Part shown: piece by piece, positions 3,869-24,714 of the stretch
How positions within the stretch are numbered: the first letter of the stretch is position 1
Layout of the letters: each line of letters begins with the position of its first letter
DNA from: a virus
Reading direction: 5' to 3' (one strand)
IMG/VR virus record: IMGVR_UViG_3300045007_000107
Location: 37,702 to 101,701 of that record
DNA: 64,000 nucleotides
The notes under the pieces: generated by a model
What the model was told of the DNA's origin: nothing
What the model saw: the letters and a program-made list of their open reading frames with translations, nothing else
The model's database searches: none
Program-made: the position numbers and the translations under genes

Positions 3869-3945
3869 CTGGAAGACAGGCACAATTTATTTGCGGGCAC
3901 TGGTAATCGCGGCTACCCTACACTTCCACGGAGCATCGACTATTC

Positions 3946-4101
3946 ATGTATTACATCATCCTGCTTGTTACCGGTTTCTTCGCCGGGATCAACCTGTCTC
4001 GCACCTACATAGATGCACGAACTAGAGACCACGACGCGTTCGAGGCAGACATGCGGAACTTCCTGCTCTGCGTGCTCATCCTCACTGTCCTCGCTAAGTA
4101 A
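3946..4101 (+). CDS. Small two-TM hypothetical protein
   Basis: ACGGAGC RBS; MYYIILLVTGFFAG...FLLCVLILTVLAK. Confidence 0.55.
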   Translation: MYYIILLVTGFFAGINLSRTYIDARTRDHDAFEADMRNFLLCVLILTVLAK

Positions 4102-4113
4102 GCGGATACTCTT

Positions 4114-4524: not shown

Positions 4525-4892
4525 GTACACGCAAAGGGATCCGACACGTCGGTATCAAGCGCATCCTCGAAAGGCTCGCTGGACGGTACCGGGGGTTCAT
4601 GAGCGAGCAAGAGTGCCAGATCCAGGCAAAGTGTGAGCTTGGCTCGATGCTCATGCAGGCCAGGGAAGCGGGAGCCAAGATCGAGGACATCTCCCGCATC
4701 CTTGGTCACACCAATACCGCTACCACTCGGATGCTGATCCACAAGGCGTACGAGCGGCAGGGCCGGATCGAACCGGTTCAACGCTACTGTGATCCTCTCA
4801 ACGAGTACGAACTGAACGAGCTTGCAGACGGCTGCAATCGTTCTCTCGACATGATAAGATTGTCGGAGGCTCAGGGTTATCACGGGGCCTAG
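4521..4892 (+). CDS. Hypothetical protein, possible HTH
   Basis: GAKIEDISRILGHTNTATTRMLI resembles an HTH. Confidence 0.6.
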   Translation: MSTRKGIRHVGIKRILERLAGRYRGFMSEQECQIQAKCELGSMLMQAREAGAKIEDISRILGHTNTATTRMLIHKAYERQGRIEPVQRYCDPLNEYELNELADGCNRSLDMIRLSEAQGYHGA

Positions 4893-4946
4893 TTCGGCAC
4901 ATGTAATAAAAAATTCGCGCGGCCTGTGGCAGAGAGGACGAAGCAC

Positions 4947-5933
4947 ATGGATAAATATGATCGCGCGTTGGCGGTTTTTCTACTGCTCGTTGGTGCGGGG
5001 AATGCGGCAGTCTTGATCCGCCTTTACCATCTCGGCATTCCGGTAAACACGACCAAGGTCGCCATCCACCTGTTCTTCGTCGGTATGTCGGTCTGTGCCC
5101 TCGTCGCGCTGTGGCTGGATCGCGACTTGCGGGGTGACCGGTGATGAACTGGCGGATGTTTGCCTTTTACTTCGGTGCGCGCTTTGGGGCAATTGGTTAC
5201 GGCTGGTTGCTCGCGTACGCGCTCGCTCAGGGCGGGGCGCTCAAGGCGTCGGTCTTGTTCGGTACCCTCATGGGGCTCATGCTCGCCTTCTTTATTTGGG
5301 GCGTGTGGGAGTACCGGCGTAGTCTGCGGGAAGAGGACGACGAATGATGATTTGGGCTTGGATCTTAATGCTTGCAGCCGGCTGCACGGCGATCAGTAAC
5401 CTCGTGGCCTCCGGCGGCTACAGCGTCGATAGGGACGATAGGCCACTGAGCGGGTTCTTATTCTGGAACGGGATCTTGCTGGGCTTTATCACGATCCTGC
5501 TCGTTGTTATTATCGTTAAGTGAGGCGCTATGTCGGATCTCGCAACAATCGGTTATCTGCTAAGTCACCTGGGATGCCTGCTCGTTGGTCTCGGTGCCGG
5601 TGACTACGCTGTCACGTCACAGGGTGACCGCGCCCTACCCGCCTTTCTCGTCGGGGCTGCGTCCCTCTTGCTAGGGTGCTACCTCTTCGGGTGGCACTGA
5701 TGCCGATATTTCCCGAAGACATTCAACAGCTTAGTTACCAAGTAGAGTACGGGTTAACCGTAGCAGCGATCCTCGGTAACTCTGCCCTTATCCTGTTCAT
5801 CTTGGGCGGGGTAAGTGACCTGTACCGTGTCAAAATAGGGGGCTGGTCGATGCGGTACACACTGGTGGGCATACTGCTGGTTTGGGTGGTTCTCGGGATC
5901 ATCGGCTGGCTGGTTCTGACCAATCAACTGTAG
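4947..5933 (+). other. Run of five closely spaced small membrane-protein genes (4947-5144, 5141-5347, 5344-5523, 5530-5700, 5700-5933)
   Basis: Overlapping or adjacent stop/start codons; each 56-77 aa with two hydrophobic segments. Confidence 0.7.
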
Positions 5934-5995
5934 TCAAAAGAAACGCAATAGGGTATAATCCTTCGTCGGAAATACCCCCTAATGAGGTAATACGT

Positions 5996-6664
5996 ATGTC
6001 TAAGGTGATCGTTCGTGCTAAATATGCTGAGGCAAAGACGCTCGGAGAGCTGTACGAACTGCTCGGAATGTTGATTACCGATGACGTAATGGGGACTATG
6101 CCTGTCCGTTTGGCTGGCGATGACGAGAATAATAAGGGCGTCAAGGTCTCGATTTTGTTCACGGACGAGGACGCGGAAGGGCAAACTATCGCCCCGGCAG
6201 TGACGCTTTCAGACGTTTACATTGATCCCGAAGACATTTTAGCGCCCGCATTTGTTGACGTGGGAGGGCTAAAACCCTTCGAAAAGACCATCGAAGATGC
6301 CATGCTGCGGGTTATCGAGAGGCAAATGCGGCCCGGTGGTCTGCTCAATGACTTCTTCGCCAAGCGCGTGACCATCGAGGTTCTGCCCGAGTTCATCGAG
6401 GCCGAGAACTTCGGCGATGGCGGTAAGCCGTACGAGGCCGAGGCACGCTACCCGACCCACGCGCAAGTACAGGGCTCGGGCGAGTACCAGGGGGCTATCG
6501 TCCCTGGCGAATTCACCATTCCCGCAGGCGCCGGTCCTGGCGCGCGTGTTCGGGTAGGGACGACGCCCCTCGGCGAGAGCTACATCGAGTTCTGCGACGG
6601 CAGCGGCAATGGCCTGTCGAAGCATGTGCTCAACACCTATGTGGTGCCACGCGCCAAGGACTAA
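5996..6664 (+). CDS. Hypothetical protein
   Basis: GAGG RBS, TATAAT upstream, terminator downstream. Confidence 0.7.
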   Translation: MSKVIVRAKYAEAKTLGELYELLGMLITDDVMGTMPVRLAGDDENNKGVKVSILFTDEDAEGQTIAPAVTLSDVYIDPEDILAPAFVDVGGLKPFEKTIEDAMLRVIERQMRPGGLLNDFFAKRVTIEVLPEFIEAENFGDGGKPYEAEARYPTHAQVQGSGEYQGAIVPGEFTIPAGAGPGARVRVGTTPLGESYIEFCDGSGNGLSKHVLNTYVVPRAKD

Positions 6665-6681
6665 GCGTGCAGCCGTCTGCA

Positions 6682-6705
6682 AGGGAGTCTCGTGCTCCCT
6701 TTTTC
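6682..6705 (+). terminator. Rho-independent terminator
   Basis: AGGGAG...CTCCCT followed by TTTT. Confidence 0.6.
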
Positions 6706-6722
6706 TATGGGATCGATCATCT

Positions 6723-7106
6723 ATGTCCTGTATTGTCTATCGCTGGACGCGCGAGCGTAACGAGGAACTAGCGGCGCTGTACGCAAAAGCCGACACCGTA
6801 CACGAAGTCGTTGAGCGGCTTAAGGAATTGCATCCCGGTGAGCGGTTCAACTACGGCCTTGTTCGCAAACAGGCCAACCTCATAGGGTCACGACTTGAGC
6901 GGCGCTACAAGACGCGGAATAAAGAGGAGCGGGGTGTGCATATCAGGATACCTCACGACTCTTACGCCCGTATCAAAGACGAGGCAAAGCGCAGGAGGTT
7001 GAGCATAAGCAATCTGGTAACGACCATCTTGCAGAACGTTGAGCGCGACAGCTTATTCAACGCTGTCCTAGAAGAGGAAGCCGACCATGGACATGCAGAA
7101 GCCTGA
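6723..7106 (+). CDS. Putative transcription regulator (GcrA-like N-terminus plus RHH-like C-terminus)
   Basis: WTRERNEELAALY resembles the GcrA N-terminus; VHIRIPHDSYARIKDEAKRRRLSISNLVTTIL resembles an RHH. Confidence 0.55.
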   Translation: MSCIVYRWTRERNEELAALYAKADTVHEVVERLKELHPGERFNYGLVRKQANLIGSRLERRYKTRNKEERGVHIRIPHDSYARIKDEAKRRRLSISNLVTTILQNVERDSLFNAVLEEEADHGHAEA

Positions 7107-7362
7107 GACCGAACTAGGCGACCCGAAAAACCCCGATGGGTTCTGTCCTCACTGCGGATCGCCCGTGTACACACGCGTGACCCCCGAGAACCAAGCGTTC
7201 GAGTTCGCGGATAAGATGCACGACGAGCACAGTCTCGTGGTACCGGACGAGGTGATCCTCCGGCCCGAAACCATGTATGACTGTTGCGACGGCTGCATGG
7301 ACGACCTGATCAAGGAACGCCTGCCGCAGTATCGGCAGAGGTGGCCGGCGAACCAAGACTGA
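7087..7362 (+). CDS. Small Cys-containing hypothetical protein
   Basis: CPHCG and CDGC motifs. Confidence 0.6.
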   Translation: MDMQKPETELGDPKNPDGFCPHCGSPVYTRVTPENQAFEFADKMHDEHSLVVPDEVILRPETMYDCCDGCMDDLIKERLPQYRQRWPANQD

Positions 7363-7431
7363 CGGAACGAGCGTGCAACCCTGGGGGCGGGGCGCTACAC
7401 TCTCCCCGTCATCCTGCTAACGGAGCAGCCT

Positions 7432-7713
7432 ATGTTCAGCCTTAGAGATCCGCTCGTGCGGCGGCGTATCTTCATCTGCGCGTTCACCACGACAGACACC
7501 GTGGATGGGTCCATGCTTCACTTAAAAACTGTTCGGGCCGACAACCCGGCACAGGCCACCGGCATCATCATGTCGTGGGTGTGGAGCCACAACGGCCACC
7601 ACAACATGTTTCGCCTAATCGAGTGGCGGGAACAGTCGAACATGTCCATCGATCAGAACGCGTATTACGGTGATCCCGCAATCGTGGAGCCGAAAAGTGC
7701 CGAAGCAAATTAG
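7432..7713 (+). CDS. Hypothetical protein
   Basis: ACGGAGC RBS. Confidence 0.6.
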   Translation: MFSLRDPLVRRRIFICAFTTTDTVDGSMLHLKTVRADNPAQATGIIMSWVWSHNGHHNMFRLIEWREQSNMSIDQNAYYGDPAIVEPKSAEAN

Positions 7714-8803
7714 GACCAAGTGGCACGACTTTCTGGACTGTTACCGCAAGGGGCAGATCCAGCTAAATATCGGCGGCGGCAAGTTCCGCTCCCCCTCCCG
7801 GTTCAAGAACTGGAACCAGAGTCCGCTCGACACCGTTCTTGCCGAGATCACCCTGCATCCCGAGGTGGTTCAGCACTTCGTCTTCGAGGATGATGCGCGC
7901 CCGTTCATCGTCTCGAAGCAAGCGATTGACACCATCGAGGTGCTCAAGCGGTTCAACAAATACCGTCTGCCGGCACCGATCTGTCTGGCCGAATTCCAGA
8001 CAACCGATAGGTTCATGCGGGCGTTTGTTCTCTGCTACGAGAACGACTACGTGTCGAAGCATCGGCCACTTCAACCAGCGAGGTCGCAGTACCCGTTCAG
8101 TGTTGTATGCTTTGGGCTGTTAGACATCGCGGCGGCCTACGAAAAATCCAGCCTCAAGGAAAAGCTGGCGGACGATGGCACGCCGATGCGCCCGATTTAC
8201 GACCAGTGTGCAGTGATCTACCCCGTACGCGCGCACATGGAGAATGTGCCCGGTACCTACGAGTTCGATGACGCGCTCGACCGCTTCGGCAATGCCGACG
8301 AGATCACCTACGAGAAGCGGGAGATTGGCGGGGTCACGTACTCGATGGAACCGGTGCCCTGGATCGACATGAGCCGTGCCGAGTACGAGCGCGAAGAGGT
8401 CAACATCAACCACGTACACGGCACCTTCGTGAGCATTGGCGGATACGCGATCCGCGCGCTGACCGTCATGCTCAACACCAAGGGTATCGGGCGCGAGCGG
8501 ATCGCGGATGCAGACATCTGCAAGCTCAACAAGCGGCGCAATGCCAAGCGCATCCCGACAATCCCGGCCCATGTCTACATCCATATCGCCTCGTACACGA
8601 ACAGGAAGGGGGCACAGGTCCTGGTGGGGGATCGAGGGAAGACCGGGCGCAAGCAACGGTTCCACATGCGCAGCGCGCACGTCAAGCAACAGCCCTATGG
8701 GCCGGGCAAGTCGTTGCGCAAGGAAATCATGGTCGATAGCTATCTCGTCAACGAGGACGAGGGCGGCGATCTCTACAACCCCGTAAGAGTGGTGACAGCC
8801 TGA
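7697..8803 (+). CDS. Hypothetical phage protein with basic C-terminal HxRxxH...YGPG motif
   Basis: Long ORF with GC3 bias; RFHMRSAHVKQQPYGPG. Confidence 0.75.
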   Translation: MPKQIRTKWHDFLDCYRKGQIQLNIGGGKFRSPSRFKNWNQSPLDTVLAEITLHPEVVQHFVFEDDARPFIVSKQAIDTIEVLKRFNKYRLPAPICLAEFQTTDRFMRAFVLCYENDYVSKHRPLQPARSQYPFSVVCFGLLDIAAAYEKSSLKEKLADDGTPMRPIYDQCAVIYPVRAHMENVPGTYEFDDALDRFGNADEITYEKREIGGVTYSMEPVPWIDMSRAEYEREEVNINHVHGTFVSIGGYAIRALTVMLNTKGIGRERIADADICKLNKRRNAKRIPTIPAHVYIHIASYTNRKGAQVLVGDRGKTGRKQRFHMRSAHVKQQPYGPGKSLRKEIMVDSYLVNEDEGGDLYNPVRVVTA

Positions 8804-9018
8804 TGGGTGTACACAGCAAAGTCGGCTTCAAGCGGTTCCCCAAGCAAGGGGATATGCTAGGTCGCGAGGTTCGTGTCTGTTTCAACTACGACACGTCACG
8901 GACAATACCAGGGAAAGTCGTGCGTAACGACCACGAAGACCCTCACCTCATGCTCATTCAACTCGAAGACGGTCGTATCGTTCGCGATGTTGAGTGCCAG
9001 TATACATTCAAGGATTAG
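8803..9018 (+). CDS. Small SH3/Tudor-like hypothetical protein
   Basis: Coupled to the upstream gene; beta-rich. Confidence 0.65.
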   Translation: MGVHSKVGFKRFPKQGDMLGREVRVCFNYDTSRTIPGKVVRNDHEDPHLMLIQLEDGRIVRDVECQYTFKD

Positions 9019-9020
9019 CC

Positions 9021-9374
9021 ATGAGCGTCAAGCATCGCAACTACGTCATGTTCGGCGTGATCCGTCGGCACAAGTTCAAGGATCGTTCCGAGGTTTACGA
9101 GGCCCTGGAAGGGCTTACGGACGAGGGCAACGGACTGCCAGACCCGCGCGAACTTTGCATCCTGTGGGACGGCATGGGTGCGGGGTACGTCGCGATGGGC
9201 TTTATCTATGCAAAAAGCCGAGAATTCGAGGGGTTTTCCGACATCGTAACGATCCCCGAGACTACCCCGGAACTGGTCGCTGCCTGTGTCGAGAAGGTTC
9301 TTCTCGCTCTACCGCAGCAAGACGGCGAACCGCCGCTCGAATTCAAGTGGCACGTGATCTCGCACTACTATTGA
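9021..9374 (+). CDS. Hypothetical protein
   Basis: AAGGA RBS; codon bias. Confidence 0.65.
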   Translation: MSVKHRNYVMFGVIRRHKFKDRSEVYEALEGLTDEGNGLPDPRELCILWDGMGAGYVAMGFIYAKSREFEGFSDIVTIPETTPELVAACVEKVLLALPQQDGEPPLEFKWHVISHYY

Positions 9375-9380
9375 GAGCCC

Positions 9381-9872
9381 ATGCACGACAAGTGGTTTAG
9401 GTGGTCGTCCGAAGATTTCGCCGAGGTTGAGCGTCTGCGCGCAAAGAACAAGACGTGGCAGGAAATTGGCGAAGTCTTCGGGGTTACGAAATACGCTATG
9501 TGCATGGCGTATGGGCACTATAAGAAGAAGGGCTATAAGGCAAAACTCGAAGAACGACAGCAGTTAAGGGAAAGCGTTATCGCCTCTGTCGAAGGAGGGT
9601 GCAGCAGCGTCGCACAGATCGCCAGGGATCACGGCATACTGCCCCGCTCCGCACACTGGATACTGGAACACGCCGGCATAGACCGCGAGATGCGCGAGTT
9701 CTACGCTAAACAACCGATAAGGGAACCGAATGTCCGACCATACAAAGCTCGAAGAACCGAACCTCTGGATACCGGAGCAGAACCAAGTCCATCTAGCTCT
9801 ACTCGGGAAGCTGGCCGAGGAAGCGAACGAACTCGGGGGCCGGGCGGCGCGATGCATCATCCAGGGGCTTGA
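9381..9872 (+). CDS. HTH/Myb-like DNA-binding protein
   Basis: WSSEDFAEVERLR...TWQEIGEVFGVT, plus a second HTH-like segment SVAQIARDHGI. Confidence 0.6.
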   Translation: MHDKWFRWSSEDFAEVERLRAKNKTWQEIGEVFGVTKYAMCMAYGHYKKKGYKAKLEERQQLRESVIASVEGGCSSVAQIARDHGILPRSAHWILEHAGIDREMREFYAKQPIREPNVRPYKARRTEPLDTGAEPSPSSSTREAGRGSERTRGPGGAMHHPGA

Positions 9873-10077
9873 CGGGATCGATCCCGAGGACGGCCGCTTG
9901 AACCGGGAGCATCTGGCCGACGAGATAGCGGACGTGCGCGCCCTGTGCGACCTTGCGTCGAACATGTTCTTCCCCGAGAAGGCGCAGCACATCCACGAGC
10001 GCAAGCTCGCCAAGTACGACCACAAGCAACGGTGGTTCGACAAGCTCGCCCGCTGGGTCATGGAACGCGTCCAGTAG
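9730..10077 (+). CDS. MazG-like nucleotide pyrophosphohydrolase
   Basis: KLAEEANEL ... LADEIADV acidic helical motifs. Confidence 0.65.
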   Translation: MSDHTKLEEPNLWIPEQNQVHLALLGKLAEEANELGGRAARCIIQGLDGIDPEDGRLNREHLADEIADVRALCDLASNMFFPEKAQHIHERKLAKYDHKQRWFDKLARWVMERVQ

Positions 10078-10139
10078 CGCGTTATCTGCTTGCAGCCGTC
10101 TGCACGTCTGCTACTCTCACTCAACGGAGCAAACGTGCG

Positions 10140-10961
10140 ATGATAAGCCTGCTAAACGCCGACTGTCGGGCGGTCCTGCCAAAGCTGCCCGATCAGTCCT
10201 TCGATATGATCTTTCTCGACCCTCCCTGGGGCGAAAGCAACCACGAATGGGACGTTCCCGTGGTAGGCTGGGGGCGGGAAATCCGCCGCCTACTCAAGCC
10301 CTCTGGCACGATATGGGTCATGACCAGCATGGGTCATTTCCTCCGGCACATGCACGCCGAGATCAATGCGGGCCTGTTTCGCTACGTGCAGGACGTAGTG
10401 ATCGAACACCCGAACGGTAATGGCCCGACCCTGCGGCCCGAGTTTCGCAAGGTGCATCATCACGCGATCCAGTTTCGGATGAACGGCCACTCACGCAACC
10501 TGCTCACGCAGAACCGCCCGAAGGACGGCGCGCGCATGGTGCGCAGTGTCCTTCCCAACCAAGACCCAAAGCGGCGCTGGCACCCCGCGCAGCAGCCTAT
10601 CAACGTCGTGTCTGAGCTTATCGCGCAGAGCACGAACCCCGGAGATTGTATCCTCGACCCGTTCGCTGGCAGCGCCACGTCCGCTATCGCCGCGTTCATC
10701 TTGGATCGTGATTGCGTGTGTATCGAAAAAAACTACCCGATATACACACAAGCCGAGGCTCGCCTTATCGAGGCGGGCGTCCCGTATAACACTCCCCTAG
10801 TCGTAGGATTGAACCGTGTCGAAGATCAAGCGCAGCGACCTCAACGAAATCCAGAGCCTCAACCAACAACTGGCGGACCTAGAGGCGCAATACCTGACCC
10901 TCCGCGAGTACAAAGAAACCGTGGCATTCGCGGTAGACTACGGTCCCAGCCTAAAGCCTGA
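10140..10961 (+). CDS. N4/N6 DNA methyltransferase (beta class)
   Basis: Motif IV FLDPPW precedes HPAQQP and motif I ILDPFAGS. Confidence 0.85.
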   Translation: MISLLNADCRAVLPKLPDQSFDMIFLDPPWGESNHEWDVPVVGWGREIRRLLKPSGTIWVMTSMGHFLRHMHAEINAGLFRYVQDVVIEHPNGNGPTLRPEFRKVHHHAIQFRMNGHSRNLLTQNRPKDGARMVRSVLPNQDPKRRWHPAQQPINVVSELIAQSTNPGDCILDPFAGSATSAIAAFILDRDCVCIEKNYPIYTQAEARLIEAGVPYNTPLVVGLNRVEDQAQRPQRNPEPQPTTGGPRGAIPDPPRVQRNRGIRGRLRSQPKA

Positions 10962-11169
10962 CCACGTAAAGAAGCCCCATTTTCCCCTGGAAATTCCGCA
11001 GGGATCGGTGGCGTACGGACTCGTCGTGCAGGGCTTCTGTGAGGCGGTTGCCGTGCGTATCAGCACCGTCGTGTACGCTCTGCAAAAGCTCAATGTCGAT
11101 ATCGATTACGATGCGCTCATGCGCGGGTTGAAGTCGGACATCGCGCCGCCCACTTCCGCCGACGACTAA
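10816..11169 (+). CDS. Hypothetical protein (overlaps the MTase 3' end)
   Basis: AGGA RBS plus GTG start; coiled-coil N-terminus. Confidence 0.55.
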   Translation: MSKIKRSDLNEIQSLNQQLADLEAQYLTLREYKETVAFAVDYGPSLKPDHVKKPHFPLEIPQGSVAYGLVVQGFCEAVAVRISTVVYALQKLNVDIDYDALMRGLKSDIAPPTSADD

Positions 11170-11217
11170 TACATGGTAGGCTCTTGCTTGCAGCCATCTG
11201 CAAACCAGGGGCCTACC

Positions 11218-11385
11218 ATGAACGACATCAAGACCAACTCCTGCGTTCGCCTCAAGGACTCCGAACGCAACATGCTGGTGCAGCGTGTGAGCGGGGATCG
11301 CGCCATCTGCTTCTGGTTCGAAGAGGGTGGCGACAATTTCCGCTCGGGCATCTTCCCGCTCAAAGAACTCACTGTGGTGGGGTAG
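11218..11385 (+). CDS. YodC/DUF2158-like small protein
   Basis: VRLKDS...MLV...AICFWF...F pattern. Confidence 0.55.
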   Translation: MNDIKTNSCVRLKDSERNMLVQRVSGDRAICFWFEEGGDNFRSGIFPLKELTVVG

Positions 11386-11389
11386 CGTC

Positions 11390-12167
11390 ATGGCGCAGCT
11401 TATCCAGCAGAGCGAAGAAGACGAAAACATGTACATCGCCGTGGAGCCCGGTCCTGACGTGACCGTGGGGATCGGCACCATCAAGGACATGGAGGGGCGC
11501 GAGCGCCCGTGCGTGACCATCGGCGATAACACCCTCGTCTTCGATCCGCAGGACGTGAAAGACTTCCTCCCCATCCTCATGCAGGCCCGTAGTGACGACA
11601 TGGGCTGCGAGGGCCAAGCCTAGGAGCGTTCTAGTGCCTAATCGCGAGACGCGAAACCCCACAGCCGTGTTGCAGGGTATCGTATCGGGTCGAATACCGG
11701 AGGGCGAGGAACGGCAGCGGGCGAAACTGGAACAGGCCATCCAGATTATCGAGGTTCTGACCTCCAACAATCGTAAGGTCACGATCTCCCCGGAAGATGC
11801 TGCCGATCTCATGAACTACCTGGGCGATCCCGACGCCTGGAAGCAGACCCTCCTTGTCGCGTTCAATATAGACTGACGCTTTATCGTAGCGGGTGCTGGC
11901 ACCATCCGCTACGATCTTAATGCTATACCTCTTGCAGACGGCTGCACGCACATGCCTATCCAGCGACGCTCAGCCTTCGTGGTCAAGCCTGCTCCCCGGT
12001 GGACCCATCGCGTCACCGCCAAACACTTCACCGCCCACTTCCAAGTCAGCGGCGGGGATAAGGTGATCGCCTCGGAGCCTGTGATCCACTGGACGATGGG
12101 GCAGCGCCTCGACCACATCCGCGAACTGTGCAATCAACGCGGCTATACCTTGGAGAAGGTCAACTAA
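11390..12167 (+). other. Three small hypothetical genes (11390-11623, 11592-11876, 11952-12167)
   Basis: ORF track and codon bias. Confidence 0.55.
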
Positions 12168-12397
12168 TGGATCGAGTGGAATTCCACCGAAGCCTGCGGG
12201 CACTCGGCTGGTCGCAGCGCGAGCTAGGTCGCAAACTCGGGGCTTGCGAGAAACGCATAACGGGATGGGCGAACAACAGGCAGCCGATCCCGAGAGATGT
12301 AGCCGATTGGCTACGTGGTCTTGTGGCAGCCCATGCGGCGTTGCCGCCCCCGGATACGTATCAAGTAAAGCCGGTTACTCGGAAGGCCGCAGCATGA
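12167..12397 (+). CDS. XRE/Cro-like HTH protein
   Basis: LRALGWSQRELGRKLGACEKRITGWANNRQPIP. Confidence 0.8.
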   Translation: MDRVEFHRSLRALGWSQRELGRKLGACEKRITGWANNRQPIPRDVADWLRGLVAAHAALPPPDTYQVKPVTRKAAA

Positions 12398-12837
12398 ACG
12401 TCGTCGGCGCGGGCGCACGTGACTACACGAAAGAGGTAGTCGTCTACACCGTCCTCAACTGGCTCGATGTAGCCTACGGCATCGACCGGATATCGGAGGG
12501 CAAGCAACACGGGGCGGATGCGCTGATCCGCCAGTGGCGTGAGCACCACGAGCGTCCCGGTCAGAGCTATGAAGCGTTTTGGACTCGGCTCAAGCGCGGG
12601 GCTGGTCCCGAACGCAATGCGCGGATGGTCAAGGCAGAGCAACCGGATCTATGGATCGGTTTCGAGGGCGGGAGCGGTACCGGCAACTGTATGTCGGAGG
12701 CTCTTAAGCTACCTCACTGCCGCTGTATCCACGTCGCGTCGGCCGAGATACTGCGTGACAGGATCGATCTCACCGTCACGTTCAGCCGACATGGGATGCT
12801 GCCCAAGATCACGGCTCTATCTCTGCTTCTGGTATAA
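12394..12837 (+). CDS. SLOG-family (DUF2493/YspA-like) protein
   Basis: GARDY, HGADAL, AGPERNARM, FEGGSGTGN motifs. Confidence 0.75.
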   Translation: MNVVGAGARDYTKEVVVYTVLNWLDVAYGIDRISEGKQHGADALIRQWREHHERPGQSYEAFWTRLKRGAGPERNARMVKAEQPDLWIGFEGGSGTGNCMSEALKLPHCRCIHVASAEILRDRIDLTVTFSRHGMLPKITALSLLLV

Positions 12838-12864
12838 GAAAAGGGGGCCTCGCGGCCCCCTCTC
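12838..12864. terminator. Terminator between convergent genes
   Basis: AAAAGGGGGCC-TCGC-GGCCCCCT hairpin; U-tract on the minus strand. Confidence 0.7.
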
Positions 12865-12888
12865 CGTTCTTGCAGCCGTCTGCACGTA

Positions 12889-13638
12889 TCAGCCGTAGAG
12901 GCTCTCGTCGTGAACGTCGCCCGCACCTTCCAGCAGCTTGTAGCCGTTCGCGGTGCGCTCGGCCTTCGGCGCCCGATCCGCCGAATGGTTCTGCCAGTAT
13001 TCCTTCGACAGGCCCCGGCGGACCATCGTGCCGTCCACGAGGGACTTGAGATGGGTGCGGCGGTAATACTTGTCGTCGGTGTTCGGGTTGTGCAGGAAGC
13101 CGGCGAGGAACTGGTCGCCGACCTTCACCGCCTTCACGCCGTCGCGGCTCTCGACCAGCAGAAGGCCCTCGGTCGGGCCGGTGCGGGGATCGACCTCGTG
13201 ACCCTCGCCGATGGCGGCCTGGACGCCTCGCTTGTGAAGTTCCTGGGTCGCCGCCGCGTCATCGAGGTTCACGGCGTTCTTGCCGCCGTTGGTCGGATCG
13301 GTCGTCGTGTTCAGGATGTACTCGTTGTTGAGCGACGCCTTGTCCGCGTTCTCCACCTCGTCGCCGGTCTCGCGGGTCTCGTGGGAAACCGAACGACCGG
13401 TGTGGGGGTCGCCTTCGAGGTGCGTGCCGGCCGAGTCCTCGACCTTCTTCGTGTCGCCCTCGGCGGACTCGCCCTGGGAGTTGCGCTGCTCGGTCTCGGA
13501 GGTCTGCGCCTCTTGCGCCTGCTTGTTCTCCTCGGTACGGTCGGGAGCGTCGGCCGGCTTCTCGGTCGTGGGCGCCGGGGCAGTCGCGGTGGTGGTCGCA
13601 CCCGGCTTCGGGCCGGGGATCGTGGGTGTGCGGGCCAT
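12889..13638 (-). CDS. Acidic/disordered hypothetical protein; the only clear minus-strand gene
   Basis: GGAGA RBS, very strong GC3 bias, own terminator. Confidence 0.8.
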   Translation of the reverse strand: MARTPTIPGPKPGATTTATAPAPTTEKPADAPDRTEENKQAQEAQTSETEQRNSQGESAEGDTKKVEDSAGTHLEGDPHTGRSVSHETRETGDEVENADKASLNNEYILNTTTDPTNGGKNAVNLDDAAATQELHKRGVQAAIGEGHEVDPRTGPTEGLLLVESRDGVKAVKVGDQFLAGFLHNPNTDDKYYRRTHLKSLVDGTMVRRGLSKEYWQNHSADRAPKAERTANGYKLLEGAGDVHDESLYG

Positions 13639-14018
13639 GCTTGTGTCTCCTGACATCGCGGATGCGAGGCCAGTATGATAGTCCTGCCTACATGCGTACG
13701 CAATGGGTTCTATTTTTTAGCAGGAGTGTATGCCGTGTCGAGAGCTAAGTCGAAGCCTGCCAAGCCCCAGGTCTGCACCGATGTGCGCGAATGCGCCGAG
13801 GAAGTGTTCCGTCAACTCAGTACACCGGGCTACGGGATCGACAGTATCCGCTACCCGGACGCCCTTCGCTCTAAGGCTAAAGCCTTACTGGTACACGAGG
13901 GACGCATCCGCTATTGCTTTGCCAGAGGGCACCACGTTCCGTACGATGCGCCGCATTATGGGGCACAAAGTAGTGCCGGATCGGCCCCGAGAGGACGCAG
14001 ATCATTCGGACAAAGAGC

Positions 14019-14110
14019 TTGATCCGACAAACAATCTCGCATATACTATGTCAGCCTTGCAGCCGTCTGCATGTTCAAAGGTTGACAGATGCATTACTCG
14101 ACCATATCTT
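14019..14110 (+). promoter_or_regulatory. Tandem sigma70-like promoters flanking a 16-bp motif copy
   Basis: TTGATC-N17-TATACT (14019-14047); motif at 14057-14072; TTGACA-N17-TATCTT (14082-14110). Confidence 0.65.
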
Positions 14111-14206
14111 ATTCTGACCGCGAGCGACGCGCGGTTTCATCGGCCATGGTGATAGAGCAGGCTGGTTGGGTTAGTAGCCCGGCCAGCCTGTTTGCGTGAG
14201 GTGACC

Positions 14207-14708
14207 ATGCTCGACATCGGAACCTATAGACGCTACCGTGCCGTGGCAGAAAACGGCGTCGCGCACGCCCTGAGCCTGGACATCCTGAGCGAGAACGAAG
14301 AGACGTTCCTGCACAGTATGCAAACGAAATTCCAGCAGTATCGCCGCAACACCTTTCTGTCCCCGAAACAGATCGAGTGGCTCGACCAGATCGAGAGCAA
14401 GTTGCAGGACGAACTCGGCAGCGTCTACGAAGAGTATCAGGGGGAGTAGCATGAGCATTCTACGCCGCGTTCCCGAGGTGGACCGAGAGATCGCCAACCA
14501 TCTCAAGCAGATCGACATCAACGGCTGGCCCAAGAACTACGAGACGGCCAAGCGCTTTGAGCGCTACATCAACTACGGTTGGGTGTCGAAGGGCGGCACG
14601 CTCACGCAGTTGGGCGAGCAAGCCATGAACTCCTACTTCGATCAGGCCGCCAAGGATCGTATGGACGACAGTCCGTACAATCGCGTGCAGCCGTCTGCAC
14701 GGGGCTGA
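14207..14708 (+). other. Two small hypothetical genes (14207-14449, 14451-14708)
   Basis: GAGGTG and GGGGAG RBS sequences. Confidence 0.65.
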
Positions 14709-14709
14709 C

Positions 14710-15093
14710 ATGCCTATCCGGTACGAGAAGCACTATACTCGCGGCTTGTGCCGGCGCTACCCCACACACCTGTTTGTGTTCGGTGACAACCTCGCCGGAT
14801 GGGGGCGCAAGGGACAAGCCTGTATACGTGACGAACCGAACGCTGTAGGCATACCGACCAAGAAGCGCCCGAGCATGGACGATGACGCGTTCTTCGCCAA
14901 CGGCGATGCGCAAATGTTCGTCAATGCAGTCAACCCGCCGCTGCGGCGGCTGCGGGCGCACCTTAAAAAGGGCGGCTTTGTCGTTCTACCGACTGACGGC
15001 ATCGGTACGGGTCTCGCGGAGTTGAACGTCCGCGCGCCGGTCATTCGTCGGCTTATCGATCTAGTCGTAGAGGATCTCTCTGCTACCGGGTAG
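14710..15093 (+). CDS. Macro-domain-like phage protein
   Basis: LFVFGDNL...GQA...AVGIPTK...PTDGIGTGLA; the Gly loop resembles the macrodomain ADP-ribose-binding loop. Confidence 0.55.
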   Translation: MPIRYEKHYTRGLCRRYPTHLFVFGDNLAGWGRKGQACIRDEPNAVGIPTKKRPSMDDDAFFANGDAQMFVNAVNPPLRRLRAHLKKGGFVVLPTDGIGTGLAELNVRAPVIRRLIDLVVEDLSATG

Positions 15094-15740: not shown

Positions 15741-16109
15741 ATGCGTTACGCGGTTTTCGGGCCGTCGTTCGTGCAAGACAAACTGTATGATCGCTACGAC
15801 CACGTAGCTGCTTCCCTGTCTCTGCTGCCGAACGTCGAGGAACTTGTGCTAGGCGGCGGTAAGGGCGTGGAAACCCTTGCCGACACCTGGGCGAAAGAGA
15901 ACAACATCCCCGTCCACCACATCCCGCCGCTCAACCGAGATTGGCGCAACAGGATCGGACAGGAGCAGGTATTCATCCTCCGCAACAACAAGATCATCGA
16001 GCGCATGGACGCCATGGTTCTTTTTTGGGATGGGTACTTCGCGGAACACCTCCACTTGCAGATGTCTGCAATCAATAAGCGGAAAATGTGCGTAGTCTTT
16101 CCGCTCTAG
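15741..16109 (+). CDS. Second SLOG-family (DUF2493/YspA-like) protein
   Basis: LVLGGGKGVETLADTWAKENNIP...RNNKII...AMVLFWDG. Confidence 0.7.
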   Translation: MRYAVFGPSFVQDKLYDRYDHVAASLSLLPNVEELVLGGGKGVETLADTWAKENNIPVHHIPPLNRDWRNRIGQEQVFILRNNKIIERMDAMVLFWDGYFAEHLHLQMSAINKRKMCVVFPL

Positions 16110-16142: not shown

Positions 16143-17774
16143 GTGAAGTCTATGCCCGAGCAGTACCGGCCCCGTCTCCGCATTCTGATTGACCCCGTCT
16201 ACGTGCAGATCAGCAATCTGTCGGGGTCGTCCACCTACCGCAAGTACGTCACTCTTGTCCGTGAGCTAGTCGCTCGCGGTCATTATTGTTTTTGGTGTGT
16301 CCCCGACGCCGAAGGTTACGTGCCCGATGAGATCGAGAACCATCCTAACGTTGGCATTATTCGCACTGGCGTTATCCAAGACCAGTTCGTGGTCGATGGA
16401 CTCGTCACGGATGACTTCTTCAACCTCTTCAACCGGGTCGCGGGCAAGTACCACATCGACGTTCTTTGCACATCCAGAAACAGCCTTGCAGCCTATTATA
16501 AACGACTGTTGGAGCCGCCCCGGTTCCACGACAATCGTGGTGACTATACCGACAAGGGATACGGCGTCCCGACTGTTCTCATCGAAGAGTTTCCTCAGAC
16601 CCGAGAGCGACAGAATTCGGGTGAGGCTTACTGGCTTATGCAAACTCTAGGGTACATCGCCAGCGACAAGACGGTGTTCCTGTCCGGCCACAACCGTTCG
16701 GAAGTGGTCAAAGAGATGGCGGACTATATCGTCACCTCCAAGGTCAAGAGGTTCATCGATGAGCAAGCGCGTGTCATCCCCGCCGGCATCGAATGTGATC
16801 AGCTTGACACGATCTACGACCCGAACCGCTGGCAGCACGAAGAAGGCTTTCGGGTGGTCTCTATTGGCCGCATTTTTGGCGTCTCTTATTCTGAATACGT
16901 GCCTTGGTTTGATTATCTGTTCAAGAGTGGACTGTCTGACGCGCAGCTTACCGTCTCGCTCTCTGGCGCCCTTGGTGGCCCCATGCGGAACAAGCTCAAG
17001 AAACTAGGGTTCGACTTCGGCAACGTGGGCCGGCAGTACCGCATCCTCGAAAATAACAACCGGGCAAACTTCATCCGACAGCTTCGGGGGTATCACGCCT
17101 TCGTCTGCCCGCTAAGTCACCTCGACCATCCTACGGGGCTTTTCGAAGCCATTTACATGGGCCTCCCCGGCGTCATGCCGGTCTCGGACTATCAGCGTAC
17201 GTTCTTCCATGACTGGCCCTGGGTTATCGAGCCCAAGGATAAGGCGCGTTTGCTCGCGCATCTTCGCTGGATCAGGGAGAACAAAGCCGAAGCGCGCGAG
17301 ATGGTCCTACCGTGGCGCCAGCGTATCCGTGAGCAGTACAACGCGAAAGATCGGATTGGCGAACTCTGCGACGTGATCGAGGGGGCGGGTCGTGCTCACA
17401 TCAACCGCTTTAAGACTTCTTCCGCTGTTCTTAAATTCTGCCGCGAACTTAAGGGCGTTAGTTACAGCTTTGCGGACGTTGTCGCGTTCCTCAAGGAACA
17501 GGGCTACATGGGGATCAGTATCGGCGATATGTCGATACGCACGACGTTCACCTACGCACGCGGGGCTGTGCATCACGCCATGGGTATGGCTGGATACGTT
17601 GATGCTTGTAACGGCCCTGATGATCTGTTCGTGCGCCGAGACGTGTTCGACCGGGATTACCTCCCTGCGCCGATTGCTCCGCTCCCGCTAACGCAGGAAG
17701 AGAAAATCGATATCCCCTTGCAGACGGCTGCAAAGCCCGGTCTGCGCCGCTTCACCCCCACGAGGAAAGCCTAA
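16143..17774 (+). CDS. GT-B fold glycosyltransferase-like protein
   Basis: VIPAGIE, then AFVCPLSHLDHPTGLFEAIYMGLPGVM resembling the GT4 donor-binding motif. Confidence 0.65.
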   Translation: MKSMPEQYRPRLRILIDPVYVQISNLSGSSTYRKYVTLVRELVARGHYCFWCVPDAEGYVPDEIENHPNVGIIRTGVIQDQFVVDGLVTDDFFNLFNRVAGKYHIDVLCTSRNSLAAYYKRLLEPPRFHDNRGDYTDKGYGVPTVLIEEFPQTRERQNSGEAYWLMQTLGYIASDKTVFLSGHNRSEVVKEMADYIVTSKVKRFIDEQARVIPAGIECDQLDTIYDPNRWQHEEGFRVVSIGRIFGVSYSEYVPWFDYLFKSGLSDAQLTVSLSGALGGPMRNKLKKLGFDFGNVGRQYRILENNNRANFIRQLRGYHAFVCPLSHLDHPTGLFEAIYMGLPGVMPVSDYQRTFFHDWPWVIEPKDKARLLAHLRWIRENKAEAREMVLPWRQRIREQYNAKDRIGELCDVIEGAGRAHINRFKTSSAVLKFCRELKGVSYSFADVVAFLKEQGYMGISIGDMSIRTTFTYARGAVHHAMGMAGYVDACNGPDDLFVRRDVFDRDYLPAPIAPLPLTQEEKIDIPLQTAAKPGLRRFTPTRKA

Positions 17775-17917
17775 TGTCCCCTGACGATCTCAACGACGTA
17801 CTGTCGGCCTACCGCGAAGCCCTGCTAGAGCACGGGCCGGACATGGGGATCAAGCCGAAGTACGTTGAAACCCTCGTGGCGCAACTCGGCGCCCGCATCC
17901 TGGGAGCACTCAAGTAA
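17774..17917 (+). CDS. 47-aa hypothetical protein
   Basis: TAATG coupling at both ends. Confidence 0.6.
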   Translation: MSPDDLNDVLSAYREALLEHGPDMGIKPKYVETLVAQLGARILGALK

Positions 17918-18780
17918 TGGCCCTCGCTAAGAAGCTTCCTCCGAAGGTCGCGCCGAAGAAGCCGGCTCCGCTCAAGCGTTCGACCCTGGAAATTTTCGAC
18001 ATTCCGGTCGATGATCTGGTCGGCCACGAGGACAACCCGAACGAGCAGGACGAAGCAACCTTCGACCAGCTTGTCGAGGGCATCCGCGCGGACGGGTTCG
18101 ATGAGCCGATCCAAGTCGTTCCTATCGAGGGCGGCACGCACGCCGGCAAGTGGCAGATCTTCTCGGGTCACCACCGCGCCAAGGCTGCGAAAGTCCTCGG
18201 CCTCAAGGTCATCCCCGCTGTCGTCAAGAAGGGCTGGAACGAGGACAAGGTCAAGATCGAACTCGTGCGCCGGAACCGGCTGCGCGGCAACCTCAATTCC
18301 GAGAAGTTCACGAAGCTCTACAACGAACTCAAGACGCGTGGCTGGGACGAGTCCATGCTCAAGTTGCAGATGGGCTTCACAAAAGAGGACGCGTTCAAGA
18401 AGGTCTACAAGTCCATCGAAAAGGCGATGACGCCCTCGCAAAAGAAAAAGCTCGAAGAGAGCAAGGAGAGCATCAAGTCGGTGGACGGCCTTTCGTCCGT
18501 GCTCAACGACATCTTCAAGAACCATGGCTCCGACCTCGACCACGGCTTTGTCGTGTTCAACTTCGGGGGCAAGGAGATCCACTACATCGAGACCGACACC
18601 TCGCTCAACAAGCAGGTCAAAGCGCTCGAAGAGGAGTGCCGCAACAAGGGCATCACCCTGGCGGACGCCTTCAAGCACCTGCTGAACCGCCCGAACTTGA
18701 GCGGCGTGAAGAAGTCCGGTACAGTCCAAGCTCCCGCGAAGGTGAAGCCCAATGCTAAGACATCGTCGGCCGCTGCGTAA
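17917..18780 (+). CDS. ParB/Srx N-terminal domain protein
   Basis: NPNEQ...LVEGIRADGFDEPIQV...IFSGHHRAKAAKVLG...IPAVV. Confidence 0.85.
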   Translation: MALAKKLPPKVAPKKPAPLKRSTLEIFDIPVDDLVGHEDNPNEQDEATFDQLVEGIRADGFDEPIQVVPIEGGTHAGKWQIFSGHHRAKAAKVLGLKVIPAVVKKGWNEDKVKIELVRRNRLRGNLNSEKFTKLYNELKTRGWDESMLKLQMGFTKEDAFKKVYKSIEKAMTPSQKKKLEESKESIKSVDGLSSVLNDIFKNHGSDLDHGFVVFNFGGKEIHYIETDTSLNKQVKALEEECRNKGITLADAFKHLLNRPNLSGVKKSGTVQAPAKVKPNAKTSSAAA

Positions 18781-19387
18781 GCTCAGCATCTCCAAGGACA
18801 TTCGCTCCCCCTCCGAACGGCAGCGGGACGCGCAAGAACGGTACATGGTGAAGCTCGTTGTCGAGAACCCCAAGTACCAGCTTGCGCTCGCGACGCTCAA
18901 GGAGGGGGTGCCGATCATCCAGATTGCCTCCCACTTCGCGGACAATGCCTGGATCACAGTCAACGAGCGCACGTTCGCGGAGGCCCTGCGGACGTATCGT
19001 CGCCTGCACCAAGACCACATCGACAACTTCCAGCCTGACAGCATCGACAAGTACGTGGATGCGAACAGCCCGAACATCGATGTCGAGAGCGCCCTCTCTC
19101 AGATGCTCCGTCTACAGAAGGAGCGCATCGCCATCGACTACCGTCACGAAAAAGAGATGGGAAAGCTGTTCGACACCACGCACCGCGAGATCAAGACGTT
19201 CGGCGAGATCGCAGAACTCATGCTCAAGACGCAGGGCAAGGTCAGCGGGACCGGCGGACCTGTGCGGCGTTCGGGCGAGGCAACTCCGCAGGACGTGAAC
19301 GACAACCTCGCCCTGATCAAGAAGGATCAGAACACGCAGGATCGTCTTCACGGCCTCACGCGACAATTGGTTGAGGCCAAGTCATGA
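18752..19387 (+). CDS. Putative terminase small subunit
   Basis: Helical protein with HTH-like N-terminal half, coupled directly to TerL. Confidence 0.5.
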   Translation: MLRHRRPLRKLSISKDIRSPSERQRDAQERYMVKLVVENPKYQLALATLKEGVPIIQIASHFADNAWITVNERTFAEALRTYRRLHQDHIDNFQPDSIDKYVDANSPNIDVESALSQMLRLQKERIAIDYRHEKEMGKLFDTTHREIKTFGEIAELMLKTQGKVSGTGGPVRRSGEATPQDVNDNLALIKKDQNTQDRLHGLTRQLVEAKS

Positions 19388-21510
19388 TCATCATCTCCGA
19401 CAAGCCCCCGACCAAACCGCCGCTCCGTAAAGTGCCCCCGCCCAAAAGGCGGGGTCCTGTCGTTGAGGCGACCGGTCTCAGCTTGCAGCCGTCTGCACGC
19501 CCGAAGGTCAGCCCGGCCGATACCGGGTTCTCTCTGGACGAGCGCACGCAAATGGTGCTCGATCAAATCCGCGAGGAAGCGGAATTCCTAGAGGATCGGG
19601 AGACGCGCGACCTCTGGCTCGACGGCTGCAACACCTTCGAACAGACCGGTGATATCGCCTCGCTCATCCAGCTTACAGCCTACCGTCGCAGGATCGTCCC
19701 CATTGACGAGTTCATGTACGGGCGGACCTATCTCGGGCTCAAGCGCGATGAGATCTATCCCGGCGTGATCGAAGCCTGCGAGGCTATCGACACCGACCAG
19801 TTTACCGAAGTCATCCTCAAGGGCGCGTTGGGCGGCGGTAAGACGACCATCGGCAACTTCATGCTGGCGCGCAGCCTTTACAAGATCTCCTGTATGCGGC
19901 ACCCGCAGTCGAGCTTCGGCATCAAGTCGGGATCGTCGCTGATCTTCACCATCCAATCGATCCGCAAGTCTACCGCGCAGAAGGCGGTGTTCGAAGAGTT
20001 CGGCGGCGTCATCAACAAGTCGCCCTACTTCAAGCGGACCTACCCGTACGATCCGCTGATCACGTCGAGCATGATCTTCCGTGAGCAGAACGTGACAATC
20101 ATGCCGGTCGCAACCTCGACCACGGGCGCCATTTCGATGAACGTCATCGGCGGCATCTTGGACGAGGTGAACTTCATGCAGAAGATCCTCAAGTCCACGT
20201 CGCAGCACGCCGACGACCAGGGCGCGTTCGATCAGGCGAAACAGATCTACCAGAACATCGCCCGCCGCCGTAAGTCCCGCTTCGCCAAGCACGGCAAGCT
20301 GCCGGGCATCCTGTTCCTGATCTCGTCCTCGCGCTTCCCCGACGACTTCACCGAGAAGAAAGCGGCCGAAGCTGCAATGTGCGGCGGCACCGACCCGACC
20401 ATCTATGTTTATTCGAAGGCGGTGTGGGAGTCCAAGGGTCGCGACAACTTCCTGCCTGAGAACTTCCGGGTGCAGGTTGGTAACGCCTCGCTGCGGTCCA
20501 AGATCCTCGAAGAGGGCGAAGCCTGCGATCCCGAGTGCCAGGAGCTTCACGTTCCGCTCGACTTCCTCGATGAGTTTAAGGACGATCTGGACGGGTGTAT
20601 TCGCGACTTCGCGGGCGTGTCTACGCTGTCTACCAATCCGTTCTTTACGAACCGCGACCGCATCAACGAGTGCATGAAGCTGGGAGCCGAGCATGGGTAC
20701 CAGAGCCCCTTCGACCTGGAAACATACGACTTCTCCCTTGGGATACCGCACCCCAATGTACACCGACTGCGAGCAGACATTGATGCTCCTCGCACAGTTC
20801 ACATCGATCTCGGCCTTAAGCGGGATGCTTGTGGGATCACTATTGCTCACCTTGCCGGCCAGAAGCTTGTTAAGAGAGTGGACCCCGTAAACGGCTACGA
20901 GGAGAGCCACCTGCTGCCGGTCATCGGCGTGGATTGCTCTCTTCGTGTTGTGCCGCCGAAGGGCGGGGAGATCCAGTTCGCGCATATCCGCAGCTTCATC
21001 CTCATGATGCGGGATCGTTACAAGATACCGATCAAGTGGGTCACGACGGACGGCTTCCAGAGCGTGGACACCCGCCAGATCCTCAAGACACAGGGGTTCC
21101 TTACCGACTACCGATCGGTCGAAGACTTGGAGTCCTATCGCAGCCTGCGCGACACGATCTATGAGCAACGGCTGTTGCTGCCGAACAATGAATTCCTCAA
21201 GCAGGAGTTGGCCGGTCTTGAGTACAAGCGAACTCCCACTAAAGATAAGATCGATCACCGTGCTAATGGCACTAAGGATATGGCTGACGGCCTCTGCGGC
21301 GCTGTTGCATTTCTGCTGGAAAGGAAAGCTGCCTGGATCGGGCTAGGTCCGGTGCCGCAGCGACACCCGATGCAGGGGCACAACAATCCGCCCTCAGACA
21401 CCGAGGTCGCACGCGACAACGCCCATCTCGCCGGCACCCAAGCCCAGGGGACTGTACGGCGTGCAACCATGCGAAAATCGGTATTTAGGCGACGTTCCGT
21501 GCGCAAATAG
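19384..21510 (+). CDS. terL: Terminase large subunit
   Basis: Walker A GALGGGKT, Walker B GILDE, RNase H-like IDLGLKRD, TDGFQS, KDMADG. Confidence 0.9.
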   Translation: MIIISDKPPTKPPLRKVPPPKRRGPVVEATGLSLQPSARPKVSPADTGFSLDERTQMVLDQIREEAEFLEDRETRDLWLDGCNTFEQTGDIASLIQLTAYRRRIVPIDEFMYGRTYLGLKRDEIYPGVIEACEAIDTDQFTEVILKGALGGGKTTIGNFMLARSLYKISCMRHPQSSFGIKSGSSLIFTIQSIRKSTAQKAVFEEFGGVINKSPYFKRTYPYDPLITSSMIFREQNVTIMPVATSTTGAISMNVIGGILDEVNFMQKILKSTSQHADDQGAFDQAKQIYQNIARRRKSRFAKHGKLPGILFLISSSRFPDDFTEKKAAEAAMCGGTDPTIYVYSKAVWESKGRDNFLPENFRVQVGNASLRSKILEEGEACDPECQELHVPLDFLDEFKDDLDGCIRDFAGVSTLSTNPFFTNRDRINECMKLGAEHGYQSPFDLETYDFSLGIPHPNVHRLRADIDAPRTVHIDLGLKRDACGITIAHLAGQKLVKRVDPVNGYEESHLLPVIGVDCSLRVVPPKGGEIQFAHIRSFILMMRDRYKIPIKWVTTDGFQSVDTRQILKTQGFLTDYRSVEDLESYRSLRDTIYEQRLLLPNNEFLKQELAGLEYKRTPTKDKIDHRANGTKDMADGLCGAVAFLLERKAAWIGLGPVPQRHPMQGHNNPPSDTEVARDNAHLAGTQAQGTVRRATMRKSVFRRRSVRK

Positions 21511-24658: not shown

Positions 24659-24714
24659 GTTCACTTGCAGCCGTCTGCAAACTACGATGGTTCCCGGATT
24701 TCCTGGGGATCATC

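Follow-up and report, generated by a model that had tools for sequence, protein, structure and literature searches.

What do a glycosyltransferase gene and a gene for a ParB-like protein do together, directly ahead of the packaging genes of a phage? This question is raised by a locus in a 64,000-nucleotide stretch of DNA from an uncultured phage (the window, positions 37702-101701 of the 101.7-kb IMG/VR record IMGVR_UViG_3300045007_000107). The core of the locus is a mobile two-gene cassette, in which a glycosyltransferase (GT) of the GT-B type, with a C-terminal domain particular to its family, is joined by a dedicated partner of the ParB/Srx fold. We tentatively propose, with slightly less than an even chance of being right, that the pair carries out ParB-assisted, post-replicative glycosylation of the phage DNA without a recognisable enzyme to make the acceptor.

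Gene order at the locus

The locus consists of six consecutive genes, listed here with their window coordinates and the basis of each assignment.

15741-16109, plus strand: SLOG/YAcAr ("DprA-like") gene (PF10686, phrog_289)
16143-17774, plus strand: GT-B (GT4-like) glycosyltransferase, open reading frame (ORF) of 543 aa, likely start ATG 16152 (fold by AlphaFold2, AF2, and Foldseek)
17774-17917, plus strand: 47-aa ORF between the GT and ParB-like genes (open frame, TAATG at both junctions)
17917-18780, plus strand: ParB/Srx-fold protein, 287 aa (PF02195, phrog_26387)
18752-19387, plus strand: probable small terminase subunit (TerS candidate), 211 aa (position, phrog_35167)
19384-21510, plus strand: large terminase subunit (TerL), 708 aa (tblastn homology, Walker A motif)

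A first-pass annotation of this DNA described the genes from GT to TerL as an overlapping series, and all five frames do lie on the plus strand as listed. The GT gene meets the 47-aa ORF in the sequence TAATG (17772-17776), and a second TAATG (17915-17919) joins that ORF to the ParB-like gene. The ParB-like gene and the 211-aa ORF overlap by 29 nt (18752-18780), and the 211-aa ORF passes into TerL through ATGA (19384-19387). The GT-ParB pair is placed at the head of the late packaging operon, ahead of the TerS candidate and TerL.

The glycosyltransferase

The 543-aa protein is assigned to the GT-B fold, with two Rossmann-like domains and a GT4-like character, by its predicted structure and not by its sequence. 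Its start is more likely ATG 16152 than GTG 16143, because the homologues begin MPE. The AF2 model, calculated from an alignment of 30 homologues, has a mean predicted local distance difference test score (pLDDT) of 83.9 and a predicted template modelling score (pTM) of 0.85. When this model was compared with the PDB by Foldseek, the top matches were the GT4 enzymes BshA, MshA, PglA and WaaG (E about 1e-11), with PimA also among the leaders and more than 500 matches at E<=0.001. Full-length structure matches in BFVD (TM score 0.67-0.76) include the annotated GTs of the Arthrobacter phages Kitkat and BeatusComedenti. By sequence, the only match to curated families is PF13524 at 21.5 bits, below its cut-off of 25, and there is no match in PHROG or among PDB sequences. 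The GT-B-like identity given in the first-pass annotation is thus borne out by the fold of 16143-17774, while at the sequence level it has only this sub-threshold match.

The family comprises 135 close homologues and 523 representatives found by profile search; a search for related loci with single distant GTs as query found nothing. Across 40 diverse members with only about 20% identity, residues D106 and E335 never vary; the close family shows no variation at H326, D328, P330 and E335. The candidate for the acidic motif of the C-terminal Rossmann domain has the spacing D-x6-E and not E-x7-E. An additional C-terminal domain, about 100 residues long (approximately residues 420-510) and ending in G-[YW]-x-D-x-C, is conserved in the family, and the protein ends in a disordered basic tail. 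This domain has no match in the ESM Atlas. The order of its predicted secondary structure elements is compatible with a winged helix.

The ParB-like protein

The ParB/Srx domain and the GHHR motif named in the first-pass annotation are both present: the protein matches PF02195 (ParB_N) with E 2.6e-9 and contains the motif SGHHR. It also matches phrog_26387 over its full length (E 4.9e-54). With the family profile, matches were obtained to the CTPase domains at the N-termini of Noc, ParB and KorB (E 3.5e-18 for Noc), and Foldseek finds the same three proteins with the AF2 model (pLDDT 84.1). In this model an N-domain (residues 27-123) is followed by helices (128-203) and by a beta-hairpin with further helices (210-257). 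No homology of the middle region, where the helix-turn-helix (HTH) would be expected, to the HTH of ParB, Noc or KorB could be detected. The family consensus SGHHRxKAA replaces the GERRxRA that binds cytidine triphosphate (CTP), and in box III (canonical ENLQR) N120 and G124 are kept while the glutamate is changed to arginine.

Free serine kinase and sulfiredoxin are among the further matches of the profile. This might suggest that the protein is a kinase-like or nucleotidyltransferase-like enzyme, similar to SerK, SbnI or sulfiredoxin, which prepares a donor or an acceptor, and that together with the GT and the SLOG protein it modifies a nucleotide or another small molecule, for example in counter-defence. 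A nucleotide-binding SLOG protein adjoins the pair in its own lineage, and no pathway to a DNA acceptor was found, as such a role would allow. However, the best matches of the profile are Noc, ParB and KorB, the model has the three-part form of ParB, the SLOG gene is restricted to one lineage, and the published precedent is for a partner role at the level of DNA. We regard the enzymatic role as very doubtful.

Coupling of the two genes across phages

Gene contexts were compared in a collection of phage genomes and in 54 loci retrieved from IMG/VR with the ParB alignment, 49 of which have enough upstream sequence to be assessed. The order GT, small ORF, ParB-like gene, ORF and terminase is annotated in the Rhodobacter RcF phages, Agrobacterium phage JP1, Stenotrophomonas phage DLP5 and Rhizobium phage RHph_TM16 (TM16). 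Rhodobacter phage RcZahn has the same order from GT to terminase, spanning its genome ends, and in the unannotated Vibrio phage KarBoss it is indicated by gene sizes and by tblastn matches to ParB and TerL. Kitkat and DanielleIgnace, both Arthrobacter phages, carry the GT gene next to the ParB-like gene at the right end of the genome. The counterparts in RcDurkin and JP1 are 59-65% identical for the GT and 41-46% for the ParB-like protein. In place of the 47-aa ORF, which has no homologue in Pfam, in PHROG or by tblastn in the compared phage genomes, RcDurkin, JP1, DLP5, TM16 and Kitkat each carry a small ORF that is not homologous to it.

The two genes are present together in 9/9 of the compared phage genomes that carry either and absent together from 2/2. 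The latter are Vibrio phage VHB1 and Gordonia phage Beaver, which have a related TerL; VHB1 additionally shares portal, capsid and replication genes. A tblastn comparison of all ORFs with ten phage genomes left the actinophages with hardly any shared genes besides the GT, ParB (34-39% identity) and part of the 211-aa ORF. Among the 49 assessable metagenomic loci, 38 have a member of the GT-B family immediately upstream of ParB on the same strand, mostly 0-370 nt away. The coupling proposed in the first-pass annotation therefore extends far beyond this locus, and comparison of sequences gives good support to the view that the two gene products work as a functional unit. The cassette spans phages of Alphaproteobacteria, Gammaproteobacteria and Actinobacteria, with at least nine cultured phage-host pairs.

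In locus L094 (5525-6487) a GT-A (PF00535) stands directly upstream of ParB, followed by the TerS candidate and TerL, as a non-homologous swap for the GT-B. Since a GT-A can replace the GT-B beside the same ParB family, it can be argued that ParB partners glycosyl transfer as such. In five GT-less ParB loci, listed below, the place of the GT and the small ORF is taken by a protein of 304-352 aa (phrog_17202) and an ORF of 73-89 aa. This protein has no Pfam match and its profile has no PDB match; it may replace the GT as the enzyme that partners the ParB family.

L096, 5800-6732: phrog_17202 locus
L099, 5780-6721: phrog_17202 locus
L100, 5776-6747: phrog_17202 locus
L102, 5707-6765: phrog_17202 locus
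L112, 5860-6774: phrog_17202 locus

The genes upstream of the GT differ between lineages. The branch of DLP5, TM16 and RcZahn has an NAD-dependent epimerase/dehydratase and an aminotransferase there (L005:1-2912, L008:4786-6799, L029:2655-6004), to which DLP5 and RcZahn add a PIG-L deacetylase and a methyltransferase. The own lineage of the window has the SLOG gene in this place instead. In the Arthrobacter phages a methyltransferase is annotated just after the GT-ParB pair.

Proposed function of the pair

Published systems offer a close comparison. One subclass of the phage thymine dioxygenases (5mYOX) acts on double-stranded DNA only together with its cognate ParB-like protein, and the neighbourhoods of 5mYOX genes also contain GTs (31%), ParBs (27%) and terminases (19%) (O'Toole et al., PNAS 2026, PMC13229309). 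As at our locus, the 5mYOX176/ParB176 clusters combine a dedicated two-domain ParB-like protein with an enzyme of the DNA-modification type, often beside GTs and terminases, and the canonical CTP-site residues of their ParB are degenerate or dispensable. However, a search with PF12851, which had no positive control, found no TET/JBP enzyme in the own genome, five cultured relatives and 38 related records, and the constant partner of ParB here is a glycosyltransferase. The first-pass annotation called the system undescribed. This is only partly right: GT, ParB and terminase genes had already been reported to co-occur, although around 5mYOX, which was not found here.

A preprint from the same laboratory reports that phage GT-A and GT-B enzymes glycosylate 5-hydroxymethylcytosine (5hmC) in DNA; the GT-B enzymes resemble T4 beta-GT, BshA, MshA and PglH, and their gene neighbours include ParB-like proteins, terminases and sugar epimerases (10.1101/2023.12.21.572611). 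The present family is similar to these enzymes (T4 beta-GT, GT53, GT66 and GT94) in its GT-B fold and in its structural neighbours BshA, MshA and the Pgl proteins. It differs from them in its extra conserved C-terminal domain. They also depend on a methyltransferase with 5mYOX or on a ThyA-like hydroxymethylase, none of which was detected here.

The genomic DNA of phage DLP3 was resistant to all 15 restriction enzymes tested, from which its authors concluded that it carries a modification of undetermined nature; for its GT they guessed a role in lipopolysaccharide modification (PMC7326821). DLP3 carries the cassette together with sugar-tailoring genes. The gene runs of RcF, RcZahn, JP1, DLP3, DLP5 and TM16 consist of orthologous genes in the same order as here, and were known from annotations without an assigned function; in the branch of DLP5, RcZahn and TM16, sugar-tailoring genes stand where our lineage has the SLOG gene.

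The ParB-dependent 5mYOX enzymes, the phage GT-Bs acting on DNA and the resistance of DLP3 together make ParB-assisted DNA glycosylation the best-supported reading of the cassette. From these comparisons we infer that DNA is the acceptor and that the ParB-like protein takes part at the level of DNA. The GT would transfer a sugar from a nucleotide sugar to phage DNA after replication, before or during packaging. The ParB-like protein would serve as a DNA-engaging activator or clamp for the GT on double-stranded DNA, as ParB176 does for 5mYOX176. The SLOG gene of our lineage, and the set of deacetylase, dehydratase, aminotransferase and methyltransferase genes in the lineage of DLP5 and RcZahn, would be lineage-specific accessories. 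That the GT modifies DNA, which the first-pass annotation had suggested beside virion glycosylation, is therefore a plausible proposal in view of the published ParB activators and the DLP3 resistance, although no gene for making an acceptor was found.

Several points weigh against this reading. The nearest solved folds of the GT act on small molecules, lipids and glycans. The resistance data come from a distant cassette, that of DLP3, and not from this phage or its closest cultured relatives (RcF, JP1); the DLP3 GT belongs to a distant branch (hhalign probability 96%, 21% identity), and DLP3 encodes a thymidylate synthase. The most serious point is the acceptor. In the 101.7-kb record there is no match to PF00303 (ThyA-like), PF01702 (TGT/DpdA), PF12851 (TET/JBP) or PF02511 (ThyX), so that the absence of a hydroxymethylase or TET gene, which had been noted for the window, holds for the whole record. 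PF12851 and PF00303 are likewise absent from RcDurkin, JP1, DLP5, TM16 and Kitkat. Among 38 related IMG/VR records of the cassette family, PF12851 is found in none and PF00303 in one, a 178-kb phage in which the gene lies about 22 kb from the cassette. Six of these 38 records are at least 90% complete, and five of the six near-complete genomes with the cassette lack a recognisable route to a hydroxymethylated base. The absence of PF12851 is weaker evidence than that of PF00303, because PF12851 was above its cut-off in no control genome, while the controls for PF00303 were positive in 10/14 genomes. When the other ORFs of at least 95 aa were scanned with Pfam, matches were to replication proteins, RecA, an N6/N4 DNA methylase, a muramidase, an HNH nuclease, an AAA+ ATPase and a further SLOG protein, and none to an oxygenase, radical SAM enzyme, kinase or amidotransferase.

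Within the sensitivity of the Pfam hidden Markov models, we rejected the possibility that a 5mYOX, ThyA, ThyX or TGT gene is hidden in the record, with the same limit on PF12851. No enzyme making 5-hydroxymethyl pyrimidines or 7-deazaguanine was detected that would point to the acceptor atom. It might be that the GT and ParB form a self-sufficient system which glycosylates DNA without a 5-hydroxymethyl pyrimidine, either at a canonical base or the backbone of DNA held by ParB, or with a neighbour (the SLOG or phrog_17202 protein) as a new base-activating enzyme. This specific form we consider improbable.

Besides the GT candidate, the record has a single recognisable enzyme of DNA modification, the N6/N4 DNA methyltransferase at 9945-10961 (PF01555, E 9.8e-26). 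A family A DNA polymerase outside the window (G000:C1:2785-5586, L060) has a weak N-terminal match to uracil-DNA glycosylase, below the cut-off (PF03167, E 0.0012).

Virion proteins of mycobacteriophages are known to be glycosylated, and this provides a precedent for the main alternative, in which the GT glycosylates a protein of the capsid, tail, portal or packaging machinery while the ParB-like protein is an adjacent packaging accessory or nuclease. The location of the GT gene in a late operon beside head genes would be natural for such a function, the GT4-like fold is generic, and no base-activating enzyme is needed, in accordance with the finding of none. However, the GT and ParB genes are transferred jointly between phages with unrelated structural proteins, which fits a universal substrate better, and the GT-A that stands in for the GT-B beside the same ParB family is not readily explained by a protein target. 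The major capsid protein of DLP3 is 92% covered by unmodified peptides, which leaves little room for glycopeptides, although this is a weak argument. Protein glycosylation appears to us unlikely, but it is the rival with the strongest claim.

Dispersed palindromes

The first-pass annotation had proposed that ParB loads at 16-bp sites and recruits the GT or the terminase, giving a site-directed modification. The window does contain a strongly enriched palindrome, with 39 copies of TGCAG-MCGK-CTGCA at one mismatch or fewer, compared with 0.07 expected. The whole record has 62 copies of TGCAG-N4-CTGCA and 68 of TGCA-N6-TGCA. Of these 68 copies, 52 are inside ORFs, mostly in one frame that reads (L/V)Q(P/T)(S/A)A and often near protein termini. 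The copies in the genes of the locus and three others in the window are as follows.

16057-16070: copy in the SLOG gene, one mismatch to the core
17719-17732: copy in the C-terminal tail of the GT, read as PLQTAAKP
19484-19497: copy 100 nt into TerL, read as SLQPSARP
1472-1485: other copy in the window
24666-24679: other copy in the window
38894-38907: other copy in the window

RcDurkin and JP1 carry their own palindrome variant 157 and 178 nt into TerL, respectively. The inner bases differ by lineage: TGCAGCCGTCTGCA in the own genome, TGCAATCGATTGCA in RcDurkin, TGCAAACGTTTGCA in JP1 and TGCAATCAATTGCA in DLP5. The number of TGCA-N6-TGCA sites is 31 in RcDurkin, 35 in JP1, 38 in DLP5, 18 in TM16, 26 in KarBoss and 28 in RcZahn, while other spacings of the TGCA halves give 0-8 sites. 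The palindrome is a hallmark of a group of proteobacterial siphoviruses of about 80-100 kb (relatives L001, L002 and L005).

The palindromes do not follow the cassette. None occurs in Kitkat and DanielleIgnace, which both carry the GT-ParB pair, or in many metagenomic cassette loci, and several close relatives have other motifs or none in its place. Conversely, VHB1 has 9 palindromes and neither GT nor ParB, and L109 has 4 palindromes and ParB without GT. As a general rule, the palindromes were therefore rejected as ParB loading sites needed by the GT, although they may serve in this way within the own lineage. Since palindromes and cassette occur independently, site-directed ParB loading is neither shown nor needed for the pair. 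A site-directed modification is also at odds with the resistance of DLP3 DNA to 15 enzymes, which argues for a pervasive modification and not one limited to about 40 sites.

These data also bear on the possibility that the ParB-like protein reads palindromes in the manner of Noc or KorB, for partition of a plasmid-prophage, for silencing or for the organisation of DNA in packaging, and that the GT is an unrelated neighbour, for example an enzyme of the host surface or of seroconversion, as proposed by the authors of the DLP3 study. The likeness to ParB, Noc and KorB, which load at palindromes of 14-16 bp, is clear in the homologous N-domain and in the abundance of a palindrome of this size in the genome, with lineage-specific variants of TGCA-N6-TGCA in RcDurkin, JP1, DLP5, TM16, KarBoss and RcZahn. 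The model of the ParB-like protein is helical in the region that corresponds to the DNA-binding domain of ParB and KorB, and DLP5 is reported to lysogenise as a phagemid (PMC5834331). However, the genomes named above, in which cassette and palindromes are separated, do not fit such a reader, GHHR stands in place of GERR, and the strict pairing of GT and ParB would be left without an explanation. There is also no ParA-type ATPase: the Pfam matches of the record's ORFs of at least 95 aa include no ParA/CbiA family. In our estimation a palindrome reader with an unrelated GT is quite unlikely. It was likewise judged unlikely that this ParB serves mainly in plasmid partition, given that no ParA was found and that the cassette is present in phages such as RcF, for which there is no evidence of lysogeny (PMC8601537).

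Terminase and neighbouring genes

The 211-aa ORF is probably the small terminase subunit, although this is a candidate assignment drawn from position and sequence features. It adjoins TerL upstream, overlaps both of its neighbours and occupies the same position in 8 phages. An alignment of only 8 sequences suggests an HTH-like N-terminus and a coiled coil. Its sole family match is phrog_35167, of unknown function (E 0.0028), and it has no match in Pfam or to a TerS family. For the label "TerS-like" of the first-pass annotation, the basis is the position of the gene and this alignment. JP1 gene 008 and DanielleIgnace gene 1 belong to the same phrog_35167 family, and the latter is located at the left genome end, upstream of split terminase genes.

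TerL was correctly identified from the beginning. It has no sequence match in Pfam, PHROG or the PDB, but tblastn finds it in 352 phage records with up to 52% identity, and nearly all of the matches listed are annotated as terminase. A Walker A motif, GALGGGKT, is located at residues 147-154, and the first 90 residues or so are lineage-specific. In some relatives TerL has about 1040-1170 aa (L001:9363-12503 of RcDurkin; L067, L086, L094, L115), compared with 708 aa here. The tblastn match to these long proteins is in two pieces, which suggests an intein or another large insertion.

The SLOG gene matches PF10686 below the cut-off (E 4.1e-6) and also matches phrog_289. A "DprA-like" protein is annotated at the same position in RcDurkin (gene 20) and JP1 (gene 003). 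A SLOG homologue is found upstream of the GT in 14 IMG/VR loci, all of the own lineage, and directly adjoins it in 9 of the 14. A second YAcAr/SLOG protein of the window (PF10686, E 4e-5) is encoded by an ORF of at least 95 aa within 3050-15093 or 23233-63626, in parallel to RcDurkin, where genes 10 and 20 are both annotated as "DprA-like". The isoelectric points of the GT, the ParB-like protein and the TerS candidate were uninformative.

Significance

Hypermodifications of phage DNA defeat restriction and CRISPR defences and have been a source of widely used enzymes. To our knowledge, a hydroxymethylated base is the starting point of all DNA glycosylations proven so far. Should this cassette act on something other than DNA, ParB-fold proteins would have a function beyond DNA transactions. 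Should it act on DNA, the chemistry of the acceptor would be new, and ParB-like proteins would be general partners of DNA-modifying enzymes and not of dioxygenases only.

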